Shown: positions 1,106-7,306, numbered from the whole stretch's first letter. The stretch: DNA of 63,988 nucleotides, filler included, from Reclinomonas americana ATCC 50394 (GCA_048213135.1; 15 parts of 15 records of this genome joined end to end with filler, not necessarily neighbours in it); one strand, 5' to 3'. A program made the numbers and translations. Notes: generated by a model from the letters alone, not told the origin.

Positions 1106-3963
1106 CCACCATTGGCTTCCTCGGCCACTTCACACCCATCACATTGGCCCCTCTGAAATCCGCCTCCCTCGCATACGCCATGCACACATTCACCTCTCGC
1201 AAATCCGCTCCCCTCCATACCGTCCTATGCATCATCGCATCCCTCAAATCTGCACCCCTCACTCGCACACCCGACAAATCTCGCCCACTGAACGACACCT
1301 GAGCCACACACAAAACTGTCGCTGCATTTGCTGCAGTTGTCACCACTCGCCGGCTATCCACTTCTCTCGACAACTCAATCACCTCCCACAGTCTCGCTTG
1401 CAATCGAGGAGACCGTCGCACCACCTCGGCCATCTGTTCCACCAACGATGGTCTGTCGTTCAGCAATCGCACAGACAACACATGCTGCTGCACATCCTGC
1501 ATCGTCAACCGCCTCTCTTCATCCCACATCTCCCACGCAAACACATGCCGCGCCACACAATGTTCCAACAACGACAGATGCACGAATCCCCACTGTGTCG
1601 TCCCAAACCGTCGCACAATCGGACAACACACTCGTACGTGCTGATTCTTGGGACCGAGGAACTTATCAAATGGTCCTTCTTCCACTCCTCGTCGATCGAG
1701 AGGCGCACCACCAAAGTCATCCTCCTCCTCCCCACCATCTTCCGATCGACTCTCCGTCACAGACACACGCACCACACTCCGCTCGTGCATCAACCGTGCC
1801 AGTCCCTCACAGAACGCGAGACACGTCTCCTCACTCGGCACACGCTCCGCACCCAAGCGTGCTTGCCTTAGACGCTCTCTTTCAGACCACTGCCGAATGA
1901 ATCGGTCGAATACATCACACCGGGTCGGTCGCTGCGCACCACTCGCCACCAATTGCGGCAACACACGAGCTACCACTGCCAGCAGGAACGGATTCGACAC
2001 CAGTGCGTCCAGTCCATGTACACTCGTCAATGCACGAATGTACTCCTCGGCAGTCGACCATCGCTCTTCGTCATCACCGCCCACCCGCACCAGTCGCACA
2101 AAGTACTCCTCAACCTGCTCCTTGTTAAACGGTGCAATGTGCCGCTCCATCAACTGCTGCATGCACAACTGTCCACGTGCATCCATCGGTGCAAAGTACC
2201 GTCGATACTGCGTCACGCCACCCAGTGCCGTCAGTGCGTAATCGCCGCGACATGTGATAATCACTTTCACATCACGACACACATCCAGCTGGTTCTTGAC
2301 AAACAGATTCACACCACGGTACAACTCGTCGTATCCGTCGAGCAACAACAGCAGCGGTTCCTCCTTCAACCGTCGCACATCTGACTCCAGACCCAACTCG
2401 GGTGACAGTCGCTCCAGTGCCTCCTCCAACAGTCGCTCATCGGCATTGCGGAGAGCACCAAGGGGCACACGCATAGGCACACGTCTGCTCTCTCTCGTCT
2501 GCCACTGTCGCCAAGCTCGCTCAGCCAGCACCGACATGGTGGTGGTCTTGCCGGCCCCGCTGTTGCCAAACAGCACCAGCACACGGTGGGTGGTGTTGGT
2601 ATCGCTGAGGAAAACATCCACCTCCGTCAACGGATCAGTCATCTTGTCTCTCGAGGAGGCGTCACGCTCACGTGAGCACAGCAGCGGCACATACATCTGC
2701 ATGTCCTTGCGCACACTTTCGTCGCGCTGATAGAATGACAGCTCACGCAAAGCCAGCCGATGCAATCGCTCATCGAATGTGTCCACGATGTGTCGAGCAT
2801 GACGTGCCTCGCAGACACGGGCGGTGAATCGAGCACGATCATCAGCCGTCAACTGCAGTCGAGAGAGGATGGAGAGAAAGACACCACCGTCACCGAGGTA
2901 GCGTTGCACAGTGGCATCTGTCAGTGGCAACTCATCGTGTCTCAGCTGGTTTCTGATACCATGCAGCTCGACTACAGCCTTCCGTTCATCAACATCGTCA
3001 ACCAGCAACAGCTTGCGACCGTCATCCAGAACAAAGCCACCATACAGCAGGATGGAGGCGAGTGCCGTCGTGTCGAAACCGTCACATTGAGGGTCGGACG
3101 AGGAATCAGCGTCGACTGCTTCCTTCCAGGCCAAAACCACCGACTGCTTCTCCTCAAACAACTTGACTCGCGAGGGGTGGAGTGGAGCATGCCGCTCACG
3201 CCATACCATGACCGCCGCCGCATCCACGCCAGCAGGCGTGAAACTCGGCACCCACGCCCGCACATCAAAGTCGGGGTGGTCGCGACTGAACTGTGCCAGC
3301 GCGCGTTGACAGCGCAGACGCACCGCCTCTTCTACCACCTCAAAGGCCATATTGATGCGTTGGGAGTTTATCATGCTGTGCGTGCACACAGACATAGTCA
3401 GCACAGACTCAGTCCGAGTGGAAGAACAAGGGAGGGAGAGAAGAAGGGTGACGAGGGCAAGCAGAACAAACCGAGTCACTCGCTCCAAGTTGCTGCGCGA
3501 GGACTTGAGAGTGAGTTACATGCTGCCATAGAGGATGATTCACAAACACATACCTTCCACTCTCACTTCCACTCCCTCCACTCGACTCCGGGGCCCCCCA
3601 ATGTGTCAGACGGACGACGAGATGAGTGGATGAGTTGATGCCGAGTCCACCCAGCGGCACACCACCCACGACTGCCACATCATATGGAGCAGGCCTCTCC
3701 ACTCCCACAATCCCCATCCCCGCATCTCCACTCTTCTCGCGCAGCAAGCGTGTGGCCTCCAAAAGCAAGTCCGCGAGAGTGGACATGGCCGTCATGCCCT
3801 CCACCACCACCGAAAGCGATGAATCGTGCGCCGCACTCACATTCACGGAGAACTGCGACACACACACAAGGCGGTGAGTGACAAGCGATGAGAGAGAGAG
3901 AGAGGACAGAGCAGAAAGCGAACCGCAAGCGTCCCCCACGCAATCTATACAACTCACCGACAT
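1..3963 (-). CDS. NLR-like STAND protein, copy A: ubiquitin-like N-terminus, HEPN-like domain, NACHT, pentapeptide repeats and at least 9 WD40 repeats (3' end runs off the window)
   Basis: Inferred exons are 3963-3958 (ATG TCG|gtgagt), 3852-3554 (FSVNVSAAH...SESG AG|gtatgt) and 3375 to <1. The last exon is absent from the ORF track, consistent with a frame that has no stop before the window edge; its ATG at 3374 is in frame with the WD40 repeats. Motifs: FDTTALASIL...RNQLRH, Walker A GNSGAGKT, Walker B LLLLLDGYDE, GADLR pentapeptides and GH...W WD40 repeats. It is colinear with the 816-aa ORF of copy B. Confidence 0.88.
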
Positions 3964-4335: not shown

Positions 4336-7306
4336 TTCCAGTCGTCGCACCTCCTCGCCGCTTGCCATCGACCACACCCGTACCGACTTGTCATCACTGC
4401 CACTCACGACATGCTGTCCATCGGGTGTCACTGCCACTGCATTCACCCCACTCGTGTGCCCAGATATTGGCTTCCTCGGCCACTTCACACCCCTCACATC
4501 CGCCCCTCTGAAATCCGCCTCCCTCGCATACGCCGAGCACACATTCACCCCTCGCAAATCCGCTCCCCTCCACACCGTCCGGTGCATCACCGCATCCCTC
4601 AAATCCGCACCCCTCACTCTCACACCCGACAAATCTCGCCCACTGAATGACACTTGTGCGACACACAACACCGTCGCTGCATTCGCTGCCGCCGTCACCA
4701 GTCGCTCCTCATCCACCTCTCGTGACAGATCAATCACCTCCCACAGTCTCGCTTGCAGCCGCGGAGATCGTCGTACCACCTCAGCCAGTTGCTCCACCAA
4801 CGATGGTCGATCATTCAGCAGTCGCACCGCCAATACATGCTGCTGCACATCCTGCAGCGTCAATTTCCTCTCCTCATCCCACGTCTCCCACGCAAACACA
4901 TGTCGTGCCACACAGTGCTCCAGCAACGACAGATGCACAAATCCCCACTGAGTCGTCCCATACCGTCGCACAATCGGACAGCACGCTCGCACATGCTGGT
5001 TCTTGTGACCGAGGAACTTGTCAAACGGTCCCTCTTCCGCTCGTCGCATGGCGAGTGGCGCACCGCCAAAGTCATCCTCACATGATCGATTCTCCGTCAC
5101 AAACACACGAACCACATTCGTCTCGTGCAGCAACCGCGCCAGTCCCTCACAGAACGCCAGACACGTCTCTTCATTCGGTACACGCTCCGCACCGAGACGT
5201 GTCTGTCTCTCCTGCTCCCTTACAATCCACTGTCGAATGAATCGGTCAAACACATCGCACCGAGTCGGTCGCTGCACGCCACTCGCTACCAACTGCGGCA
5301 ACACATGAGCCACCACTGCCAACAGGAATGGATTCGACACCAATGCATCCAGTCCATGCACACTCTTCAGTGCACGAATGTACTCTTCGGCAGTCGACCA
5401 TCGCTCTTCATCATCATCATCACCTTCTACTTGCACCAGTCGCTCAAAGTACTCCTCAATCTGCTCCTTGTTGAAAGGAGCAATGTGTCGTTCCATCAGC
5501 TGCTGCATGCACAACTGTCCTCGTGCATCAACCGGCGCAAAGTACCGTCGATACTGTGTCACACCACCCAGCGCCGTCAGTGCGAAATCACCTCGACATG
5601 TGATTATCACTTTCACATCGCGACACACATCCAGCTGGTTCTTGACAAACAGATTCACACCACGATATAACTCATCGTACCCGTCAAGCAACAACAGCAG
5701 TGGTTCCTCCTTCAACCGTCGCACATCCGACTCCAACCCCAACTCGGGCGACAGTCGCTCCAGTGCCTCCTCCAACAATTGCTCATCGGCATCGCGTAGT
5801 GCACCAAGAGGCACACGCACAGGCACTCGTCGTCGACTCTCTCTCGTCTGCCACTGTCGCCATGCTCGCTCAGCAAGCACCGACATTGTGGTGGTTTTAC
5901 CGGCGCCACTGTTGCCAAACAGCACCAGTACACGGTGGGCGGTGTTGGTGTCGGAGAGGAAAGCATTCACCTCCGTCAACAGATCCGTCATCTTGTCACT
6001 CGACGAAACGTCACGCTCACGTGAGCACAGCAGTGGCACATACATCTGCATGTCCTTGCGCACACTCTCGTCGTGCCGGTAGAATGAGAGTTCACGCACG
6101 GCCAGTCGATGCAGTCGTTCCTCGAATGTGCTGATGATGTGCTGCACATGACGAGCCTCACAGACACGAGCAGAAAATCGAGCTCGCTCGTCAGCCGTCA
6201 ACTGCAGTCGAGAGAGGATGGAGAAGAAGACACCACCGTCACCAAGGTAATGCTGCACGGTGGCCTGTGTGAATGGAAGCTCATCGTGTCCCAGCTTGTT
6301 TCTGACACAGTGCAGCTCCTCCACTGCCTTCCGTTCATCGGCGTTGTCAATCAGCAGCAGCTTGCGACCGTCATCCTCAACAAAGCCACCATTCATCATG
6401 ATGGAAGTGAGTGCCGTTGTATCGAAACCGTCACACGGAGGGTCGGAAGATGGGTCTCCGTCGAATGCCGCACACCAGGCCAACACCACCGGCTGCTTCT
6501 CCGCAAACAACTTGACTCGAGAGGGATGGAGTGGAGCATGTCGCTCACGCCATCGCTTCACTGCCTTCACATCCATGCTAGCAGGCGTGAAACTCGGCAC
6601 CCACGCCCGCACATCAAAGTCGGGATGGTCGCGACTGAACTGCGCCAGTGCGCGTTGACAGCGCAGACGAGCGGCCTCCTCCACCACATCAAAGGCCATG
6701 TTGATGCGCTGCGAGTTGATCATGCTGTGCGTGCACACACAAACACAATCAGCACGGACTCATGCCGAGTGGAAGAACAAGGAAGGAAGAGAGAAGGACG
6801 ACGAAGTCGGAGGCAAGCAAAACAAACCGAGTCACTCGCTCCGAGTTGCTGCGCGAAGACATACGAGTGAGATGCATGTTATGCGCTGAGAGCTGATTCA
6901 CAAAACACATACCTTCCACTCTCACTCCCTGCACTCGACTGCAGCGCCACGCCAAGCGTCAGACGGACAACAAGATGAGTGGATAAGTTGATGCCGAGAG
7001 TCTTCAACTTCAACACACTCGCATCCTCCAAGTCAAATGCACTCGGCTTCTCCACTCCCGCAATCTCCATCTGCGCATCGCCACTCTTCTCACACAGCAA
7101 GCGCGTGGCCTCGCGCAGCAAGTCCGCGAGAGTGGACATGGCCGACATGCCCTCCACCACCACCGACAGCGACGAATCATGCGCCGCACTCACATTCACA
7201 GAGAACTGTCCCACGCCCACAAGGACGGTAAGTGACAAGCGATGAGAGAGAGAGAAGAGAGAGAGAAGCAAGCGTCCCCCACTCAATCAATACAACTCAC
7301 CGACAT
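4336..7306 (-). CDS. NLR-like STAND protein, copy B (ubiquitin-like / HEPN-like / NACHT / pentapeptide / WD40), cut by the gap after the first WD40
   Basis: Inferred exons are 7306-7301, 7205-6913 and 6724 to <4336. The 816-aa ORF contains FDTTALTSIMMN...RNKLGH, GNSGAGKT, LLLLLDGYDE, VIITCR, NPFLL, FVHLSLLEH, AAANAATVL, DLSGVRVRGADLR and GHTSGVNAVAVTPDG. Confidence 0.9.

Follow-up and report, generated by a model that had tools for sequence, protein, structure and literature searches.

The closest described systems are proteins in which a HEPN domain is joined to a NACHT or other STAND module. Table 1 of PMC3710099 (Anantharaman et al.) lists animal proteins in which the HEPN of DZIP3/hRUL138 is fused to NACHT and notes an expansion in Capsaspora; it also lists the HEPN-NACHT protein CXorf38 and bacterial HEPN-STAND proteins, and a preprint by Kibby et al. 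lists HEPN among NACHT-fused domains. In the pearl oyster, over 50 NACHT proteins are described as carrying an N-terminal HEPN of the DZIP3 type, and NACHT proteins of this species can end in LRR, TPR or WD40 repeats (PMC9646362); anthozoans are described as having 17-83 HEPN-bearing NOD-like receptors (HEPN-NLRs) per genome (PMC8260672), and a report of HEPN-NLRs in nine invertebrate taxa still calls for targeted molecular studies (PMC8662601). In fungal NACHT-WD receptors, a few surface positions of the repeats are described as being under positive selection (PMC1805685, PMC4986451).

This study examined two related long open reading frames (ORFs) on the minus strand of the window, that is, the whole 63,988-nucleotide stretch of DNA analysed here. 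Copy A extends from 3375 down to where the window begins, and copy B spans 6724 to 4336. A sequence-only reading had proposed that these ORFs encode NACHT-WD40 receptors with a HEPN-like RNase domain; to call them highly novel would be an overstatement, given that the sources consulted document HEPN-NACHT-repeat proteins from cnidarians, bivalves and further invertebrates as well as from bacteria. The N-terminal domain of both copies is likely to be a divergent Swt1-like HEPN effector on an NLR-like receptor.

Domain architecture of the two copies

The two products have the tripartite layout of NLR-like proteins, with an N-terminal effector slot, a central NOD module and C-terminal repeats. 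In this domain order the NTPase motifs are intact, both copies are under purifying selection according to the ratio of nonsynonymous to synonymous divergence (dN/dS), and the N-terminal region matches bacterial HEPN domains in register. The central and C-terminal features are located as follows.

2094..2585 (approximate), minus strand: NACHT NTPase of copy A (Pfam match scored on copy B; the copies are 95% identical here)
5440..5934, minus strand: NACHT NTPase of copy B (Pfam PF05729, E-value 3e-9, 37.4 bits, cut-off 26.7; residues 269-433 of protein P0002)
1125..1277 (approximate), minus strand: pentapeptide-repeat stretch of copy A, between the NACHT arm and the WD40 array (Pfam match on copy B)
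4486..4569, minus strand: best-scoring pentapeptide-repeat stretch of copy B (Pfam PF00805, 32.6 bits, cut-off 20.2)
3..1106, minus strand: WD40 array of copy A, eight full 42-residue units and a partial one (Pfam WD40, E 5.7e-105)
4336..4470, minus strand: first WD40 repeat of copy B (Pfam WD40, E 1.2e-10)

NACHT membership was judged by a score above the curated Pfam cut-off, a Walker A motif of the form GxxGxGK[ST] and a Walker B motif of the form hhhhDGxDE; the match scores 37.4 bits against 26.7, and both motifs are intact (GNSGAGKTT and LLLLLDGYDE). A profile of the NOD module and its relatives matched NLRC4 (E 1.3e-4), NLRP9 (E 1.8e-4) and also NLRP1 in the PDB, and the NOD-module profile (A3) matched pentapeptide-repeat proteins in the PDB at E 2e-27. 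At the DNA level, the WD40 array of copy A has a tandem period of 126 nucleotides (8.7 copies, 79% matches, no indels); its eight full units have a mean pairwise identity of 74% (range 67-86%), with variable positions 4, 5, 7, 17, 23 and 25. Between copies A and B, dN/dS is 0.07 for NACHT, 0.25 for the N-terminal HEPN-like domain and 0.26 for the segment comprising the pentapeptide stretch and first WD40 repeat, at a synonymous divergence (dS) of about 0.45; NACHT is thus the most constrained part and the other two are the least.

Resemblance of the N-terminal domain to Swt1-like HEPN

The N-terminal domain and its motifs occupy the following positions, with residues numbered from the start of the large exon.

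2850..3374, minus strand: HEPN-like domain of copy A, residues 1-175 of the large exon (hhalign and 42-domain hidden Markov model, HMM)
6199..6723, minus strand: HEPN-like domain of copy B, residues 1-175 of the large exon (sub-threshold Pfam match, hhalign and 42-domain HMM)
3318..3332, minus strand: E15-x3-R19 of copy A, in the first long helix (aligned to bacterial Ex3R by hhalign and MAFFT)
6667..6681, minus strand: E15-x3-R19 of copy B (aligned to bacterial Ex3R by hhalign and MAFFT)
3051..3074, minus strand: D101-x3-L105-x2-I108 of copy A, the FDTTALASI helix (bacterial consensus columns D87, L91 and I94)
6400..6423, minus strand: D101-x3-L105-x2-I108 of copy B, the FDTTALTSI helix (bacterial consensus columns)
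2937..2954, minus strand: RNQLRH of copy A (R141, N142, H146), proposed catalytic motif (translation, alignment A7)
6286..6303, minus strand: RNKLGH of copy B (R141, N142, H146), proposed catalytic motif (translation, alignment A7)

The HEPN superfamily was taken as defined in PMC3710099, by an Rx4-6H motif in which a polar residue (N, D or H) directly follows the R, a second conserved acidic residue upstream, typically in Ex3[KR], and placement of the motif where core helix 3 runs into the loop to helix 4; the definition further comprises a core of four up-and-down helices, with an insert separating helices 2 and 3, and metal-independent RNase activity in dimeric form. RNKLGH and RNQLRH have the first of these features and E15-x3-R19 supplies the second in both copies. 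The motif positions given by the sequence-only reading were correct, with RNQLRH at 2937-2954, RNKLGH at 6286-6303 and FDTTAL[T/A]SI 40 residues upstream, all before NACHT. Its remark that R, N and H are kept while their neighbours differ is true of both copies, yet it proves nothing in domains that are 80.5% identical, for which the chance of sharing three residues is about half by our own arithmetic. In composition-preserving shuffles of the domain, Rx4H appeared in 53%, Rx4-6H in 89% and RNxxxH in 1.2-1.9%, and Ex3R was present in 75%, making it weak evidence on its own. Because Rx4H is so common in shuffles and the copies are so similar, the motif alone is likewise weak evidence.

The composite pattern, D...L..I followed after 10-50 residues by RN...H, was found in 1.4-1.9 per 10,000 shuffles, and in 0 of 200,000 when the flanking E residues were included. 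In natural sequence it occurred in 5 of 1554 six-frame ORFs of bacterial loci, all five being HEPN ORFs; among 130 stored proteins it matched two, copies A and B themselves, and among 616 ORFs of the window only these two loci. These counts bear on a different reading, which we consider unlikely, that the N-terminal domain is an unrelated, lineage-specific all-helical domain (e.g., an adaptor or membrane-targeting effector as on fungal NLRs) in which RNxxxH, DxxxLxxI and ExxxR are coincidental: the three elements stand in the right order and spacing, and the composite pattern selected HEPN ORFs alone from the natural set.

Profile comparisons carry the assignment further. Pfam reported HEPN_Swt1 (PF18731) as the sole family for copy B, over the motif region (E 0.037, 14.8 bits). 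A reference set of 42 bacterial Swt1-like HEPN domains was assembled from 30 of 401 Bacteroidota and 12 of 401 Pseudomonadota genomes; in the 7 of 42 loci scanned, these domains are N-terminal on DUF499 AAA+, SNF2, HSDR_N or FHA proteins, in agreement with Table 1 of PMC3710099. HEPN_DZIP3 was found in none of the 401 Pseudomonadota genomes. Ranked in a pool of 2004 targets (2 real, 2000 shuffled and 2 reversed), copy B came second and copy A 57th with an HMM of the first 30 domains, and first (10.1 bits) and fourth (5.3 bits) with an HMM of all 42. The profile-profile signal also grew with the reference set, from a score of 20.1 with 30 domains, equalled by 2 of 300 column shuffles, to 26.3 with 42 domains, equalled by none of 280 (mean 12.4, standard deviation 2.2, maximum 22.3), with the reversed query scoring 15.2. 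Aligned by hhalign to the 42-domain profile, the two copies together scored 26.7 (E 7.2e-4) over 65 columns in register, and singly 18.5 (copy A) and 28.0 (copy B), against a maximum of 15.7 in 91 natural 210-residue windows of unrelated proteins. The profile similarity, in register with the conserved columns, places the domain nearest the Swt1-like clade, and a score that none of the 280 shuffled or 91 natural controls reached argues against an unrelated domain.

In a set of 18 non-redundant bacterial domains, 14 columns reach >=60% conservation; by our reading, the bacterial conserved columns matched by the copies are R19, W41, D101, L105, I108, F114, E136, R141, N142 and H146. Additionally, the Glu of the bacterial Ex3R is aligned with E15, which precedes R19 by four residues, and all 11 residues are invariant between copies A and B. 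The independent MAFFT alignment A7 (28 rows, the two copies and 26 bacterial HEPN domains) is co-linear, and all 28 rows have R141 and H146. A reciprocal search with an HMM of the two copies returned HEPN ORFs at 8 of the top 20 places among 1554 ORFs, of which 42 are HEPN in all; these matches are interrelated. The sequence-only reading had named an HEPN signature of the DZIP3/Swt1-like clades. The HEPN assignment withstood each test applied and is probable, with support from profile-profile comparison, motif register and an HEPN-informed AlphaFold2 model; the nearest family is Swt1-like.

Outside this comparison, residues 1-210 are a sequence orphan, with no credible relative among 1.84 billion representatives. 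Residues 1-260 had no match in a word-indexed protein collection, and the single HMMER match among 1,835,955,588 representatives (E 6.8e-4), a 2337-residue repetitive acidic protein, was judged spurious from its sequence. Pattern searches for the N-terminal domain gave 135 matches in metagenome contigs and 9 in viral contigs, none of them confirmed; there was no match in PADLOC or NCBIfam, and none in the PDB by sequence, the PDB profile search giving just an antibody chain at E 2.

The AlphaFold2 model made with the 28-row alignment A7, 26 rows of which are bacterial HEPN domains, reached a mean predicted local distance difference test (pLDDT) of 81.1 and a predicted TM-score (pTM) of 0.75, with pLDDT 93-96 over residues 131-190. 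In the DSSP assignments of this model and of one made from the two copies alone, a helix spans 128-143 or 128-145, R141-N142 lie in its last turn, H146 follows just after it and the next helix begins at 153. Both models put the motif where core helix 3 ends and the loop to helix 4 starts, one of them being of low confidence and the other HEPN-informed; section 7 of PMC3710099 places the HEPN motif at a matching position (helix end, then loop). Seven HEPN proteins are among the 50 structural matches listed for the A7 model, which again speaks against an unrelated fold; they are given below with the three values recorded for each.

Row 1: 4rgp_B, Csm6; 6.0, 4.5, 112
Row 2: 8vz6_B, AbiF; 5.8, 5.7, 152
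Row 10: 4pqz_A, yeast Swt1 C-terminal domain; 5.5, 4.6, 118 of 136
Row 13: 6vrc_A, Cas13; 5.2, 5.2, 112
Row 18: 2hsb_A, HEPN protein AF_0298; 5.2, 3.1, 94
Row 37: 3brj_A, MtlR; 4.6, 3.4, 98
Row 50: 3c8g_A, YggD; 4.3, 4.5, 108

Several results weigh against the HEPN assignment. The HEPN_Swt1 score of copy B lies below the 27.5-bit cut-off, so that membership is not reached at the Pfam level; no HEPN family was reported by Pfam for copy A; and for neither copy was HEPN_DZIP3 (PF18738) listed with an E-value limit of 10, in a search whose HMMER filters drop most matches above about 0.1. The hhalign probability is just 26.1%, and residues 1-91, taken by themselves, give a marginal score (13.1, reached by 11 of 200 shuffles). 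The best match of the reciprocal search is an HEPN ORF, yet at E 1.1, and the enriched HEPN ORFs are related to each other. Against the sister family Abi_2 (PF07751, 26 Bacteroidota domains) the copies gave a null-level hhalign score (10.9, P 0.58), although the match between the bacterial Swt1 set and Abi_2 has a probability of 90%. The domain is known from two sequences only, which limits the motif-conservation evidence to copies A and B, and the regular expressions and the list of matched columns were drawn up after sight of both sequences. On the structural side, AlphaFold2 on the two copies alone was unusable (pLDDT 41.3, pTM 0.32), and the A7 model is partly circular because presumed homologues are in its alignment, so that an HEPN-like fold is partly built in. 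Foldseek of this HEPN-informed model against the PDB returned no match at E <=0.001 (best E 0.33).

A true HEPN fold that does not cut RNA, and that instead binds or senses RNA or serves as an oligomerisation surface, as proposed for the inactive eukaryotic Swt1 HEPN, appears improbable, more so than an unrelated domain. It draws on Anantharaman et al., who call the Swt1 HEPN probably inactive and RNA-sensing (PMC3710099), on the TIAMMAt paper, which raises RNA sensing for HEPN-NLRs (PMC8662601), and on the replacement of the bacterial Ala before His by Gly in copy B and Arg in copy A. Set against this, both copies retain the R, the polar N after it, the H and the upstream E-x3-R, and PMC3710099 predicts activity for families in which the motif is kept.

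As a separate observation, the bacterial Swt1-like profile matched the fungal SAGA subunit Spt7 (9ynw_K, 9ynu_K, 9yoq_K, residues 226-340) at E 0.007 across 114 positions, in which the catalytic His is replaced; Spt7 may contain an inactive HEPN-like region.

Gene model, contig placement and other features of the window

The DNA upstream of both large ORFs suggests that the proteins begin earlier. The two contigs align there at 77-86% identity and share an identical in-frame pattern: ATG TCG, a GTGAGT...CAG intron, an exon of 299 or 293 nucleotides, a GTATGT...CAG intron, an optional micro-exon of 21 nucleotides, a GTTTGT...CACAG intron and the large exon. Across the three proposed introns, the alignment of A and B has 12, 3 and 7 gap columns.

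3958..3963, minus strand: proposed exon 1 of copy A (ATG TCG), with a GTGAGT donor after it (conserved between the copies; junction placed by script)
3554..3852, minus strand: proposed exon 2 of copy A, about 99 residues (open and in frame in both copies)
3472..3492, minus strand: possible 21-nucleotide micro-exon of copy A (flanks CAG and GTTTGT)
7301..7306, minus strand: proposed exon 1 of copy B (ATG TCG; copy A/B comparison)
6913..7205, minus strand: proposed exon 2 of copy B, about 97 residues (copy A/B comparison)
6828..6848, minus strand: possible 21-nucleotide micro-exon of copy B (copy A/B comparison)

The micro-exon is identical at 20 of 21 bases between the copies, and the reading frame is intact with or without it. 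Exon 2 differs by a single 6-nucleotide indel and has a dN/dS of 0.49; the true N-terminus probably lies further upstream than the large exon, in this conserved in-frame exon. The product of exon 2 (about 99 residues) had no match in Pfam or the PDB, and its sole profile match was the RRM of RBM5 at E 0.86; an RNA-binding fold beside an RNase would be of interest but is unsupported. A first impression of a ubiquitin-like domain was dropped, as Pfam, PDB and profile searches gave it no support.

The conserved in-frame exons with GT..AG borders, together with a multi-exon FtsH gene in the window, point to a spliced gene of a eukaryote, as the sequence-only reading had held. The FtsH gene (44830-49741, plus strand) is of mitochondrial type, with AAA and M41 protease domains and introns of 62 to about 1400 nucleotides, whose GTGAG...CAG borders are like those proposed in copies A and B; its best named relatives are from green algae, plants and a cryptophyte (Guillardia), at an identity of <=65%. 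From these introns and distant relatives, the host is taken to be an intron-bearing eukaryote without a close relative in the protein collection, and a protist origin of the genes is plausible.

The window consists of about 15 draft contigs, in which 28 runs of N make 14 linkers of the form N44-TTAATTAATTAA-N44.

4236-4335, 7830-7929, 10323-10422 and 11 more: linkers, artificial joins

Copy A is on the contig at 1-4235 and is cut by the window start; copy B is on the contig at 4336-7829, whose end truncates it after the first WD40 repeat, with linker sequence from 4335. The ORF of 816 residues in the sequence-only reading was too long for this reason, its last 15 residues being X translated from the linker. 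Since the copies are on separate contigs joined by N linkers, their adjacency is a concatenation artefact, and a tandem gene pair was dropped as an explanation. Alleles instead of paralogs are unlikely at a dS of about 0.45, unless the haplotypes are very divergent. Any neighbourhood that spans a linker in 1-63988 is artificial.

Other features of the window were recorded as side observations. The contig beside copy B, at 7639-10313, contains long CT/GA microsatellites and tandem repeats of 250-268 and 86 nucleotides, and these repeats yield many spurious Ser/Leu/Pro-rich ORFs. Elsewhere, the following ORFs were noted, and Rfam and tRNA scans found nothing.

10423-11685, minus strand: ORF rich in Gly, Ala and Ser that carries Chlamydia polymorphic-membrane-protein (PMP) repeats and is truncated at a contig end
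14153-17305 and 20836-23067, both minus strand: long ORFs of 1032 and 740 residues without a Pfam family at E <=0.001
37934-39793, plus strand: ORF with a match to glycoside hydrolase family 113 at its C-terminal end (E 1.7e-12)
54638-57289, 57836-58489, 58402-60174 and 60174-61952, plus strand: ORFs with Sortilin/VPS10, BNR/Asp-box and teneurin-type EGF domains

The Sortilin/VPS10 run (54638-61952) apparently consists of several paralogous pieces on adjoining contigs.

Relatives, proposed mechanism and comparison with known systems

Relatives of the NACHT-pentapeptide-WD40 module comprise five metagenomic proteins, a kinase-bearing protein, a Reticulomyxa filosa protein and a gene of a gammaproteobacterial metagenome-assembled genome (P0004-P0010 and L002). 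They align only from query residue 189 onward, at 22-32% identity from the pre-NACHT linker on (P0009 over shorter stretches), and in front of the module their N-terminal domain differs or is absent, one of them having a protein kinase there; the N-terminal domain of copies A and B is in none of P0004-P0010 or L002. Because the relatives carry other N-terminal domains or none, this position is read as an exchangeable effector slot, as in other NLR-like proteins. In a tree of 10 rows, copies A and B group with P0004 (support 85/91), and the other branches are not resolved. The gammaproteobacterial contig (L001, L002) has a three-gene block twice, about 14 kb apart, comprising an unknown 550-residue protein, a LuxR-type regulator and a NACHT protein; one of the NACHT genes is complete and includes WD40, and the other, next to a Tn3 transposase, is shortened to 315 residues.

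A role in housekeeping signalling or RNA quality control, rather than in defence or cell suicide, is the least probable of the readings weighed here. The bacterial relative adjoins a LuxR-type regulator instead of recognised defence genes, PADLOC gave no meaningful match and, as a further point against an immune reading, nothing within the window links the genes to infection. On the other side, the genes form a set of two or more diverged paralogs, NACHT evolves more slowly than the effector and repeat parts, the relatives have exchanged N-terminal domains, and the repeat variation is concentrated at a few positions, as described for fungal non-self receptors (PMC1805685).

For an NLR-like receptor armed with HEPN, the gene product would comprise, in order, a short N-terminal domain without a family, the divergent HEPN, a helical linker, NACHT with its helical arm, the pentapeptide stretch and the WD40 propeller array. 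STAND proteins and HEPN RNases together form the basis for expecting ligand binding to be followed by oligomerisation, HEPN juxtaposition and RNA cleavage. By this analogy the WD40 array, whose repeats differ chiefly at six positions, would bind a trigger, and NACHT would then exchange nucleotide and oligomerise, bringing the N-terminal HEPN domains together; the Rx4H sites (R141, N142 and H146, with E15/R19) could then cleave RNA, with cell arrest or death, or destruction of invader RNA, as the outcome. RNase activity, induced-proximity activation and an immune role are all inferred in this way, and the full course from WD40 sensing through NACHT oligomerisation to HEPN cleavage of RNA is favoured somewhat less strongly than the HEPN assignment itself.

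It is tentatively proposed, with slightly less than even confidence, that a non-animal eukaryote built its own RNA-cutting NLR by placing a private, fast-evolving HEPN RNase on a NACHT-pentapeptide-WD40 module common to bacteria and a foraminifer. If this is true, HEPN-armed NLRs arose more than once in eukaryotes, and domain-based surveys systematically miss protist NLR effectors; because such effectors can be sequence-level orphans, counts of protist NLR effector types at Pfam thresholds would be undercounts. The known eukaryotic HEPN-NLRs are from animals and of DZIP3 type, and no biochemical test of any of them is reported in the literature covered, so a two-copy case of a Swt1-like HEPN in a microbial eukaryote would extend the design of an RNase on a STAND switch beyond animals and bacteria. 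The effector domain is small (about 175 residues) and could be tested directly for dimer-dependent RNA cleavage.

Compared with the invertebrate HEPN-NLRs, copies A and B share an N-terminal HEPN (probable in the copies) with Rx4H (usually RN), NACHT and C-terminal repeats including WD40, in paralog families that are presumed to be immune receptors (PMC9646362, PMC8260672). They differ in that their probable HEPN lacks a Pfam DZIP3 match and aligns to the Swt1-like clade, in a host that is not evidently an animal (the FtsH relatives being algae, plants and a cryptophyte), and in having a pentapeptide stretch before WD40 and an extra upstream exon domain. A term search of the literature found no paper joining HEPN, NLR and protist; Additional file 1 of PMC3710099 may list non-animal cases, for example in Capsaspora.

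The bacterial Swt1-like HEPN domains (Ava_2192/DUF499 AAA+, SNF2 and STAND fusions) are likewise N-terminal to an ATPase (PMC3710099), and they have in common with the copies an Ex3R, a Trp about 20 residues on and Dx3Lx2I, the bacterial motif being Ex4RNxxAH. In contrast, copy B is only 9-24% identical to them, the copies have a longer insert (about 55 residues) between the first helices and the D..L helix, and the Ala that is near-invariant ahead of His is replaced by Gly or Arg; in the copies the domain is joined to NACHT and WD40, and the gene is eukaryotic and probably spliced.

Fungal NACHT-WD receptors (nwd, HET-E/D) resemble the copies in having NACHT followed by similar 42-residue WD40 units that vary at few positions and in their exchangeable effector (PMC4986451, PMC1805685). 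Their effector is HET or another domain, with HEPN or RNase absent from the main text of PMC4986451; repeat identity is 74% in copy A against about 85% in nwd genes (PMC4986451), which leaves the array outside the nwd type, and pentapeptide repeats distinguish the copies from these receptors. The relatives P0004-P0010 and L002 have the NOD module, the arm, the pentapeptide stretch and the WD40 array in common with the copies. The novelty lies in how these features are combined: an apparently non-animal host, a probable HEPN nearest to the Swt1-like clade that is invisible at curated thresholds, a pentapeptide stretch before WD40 and an extra upstream domain.

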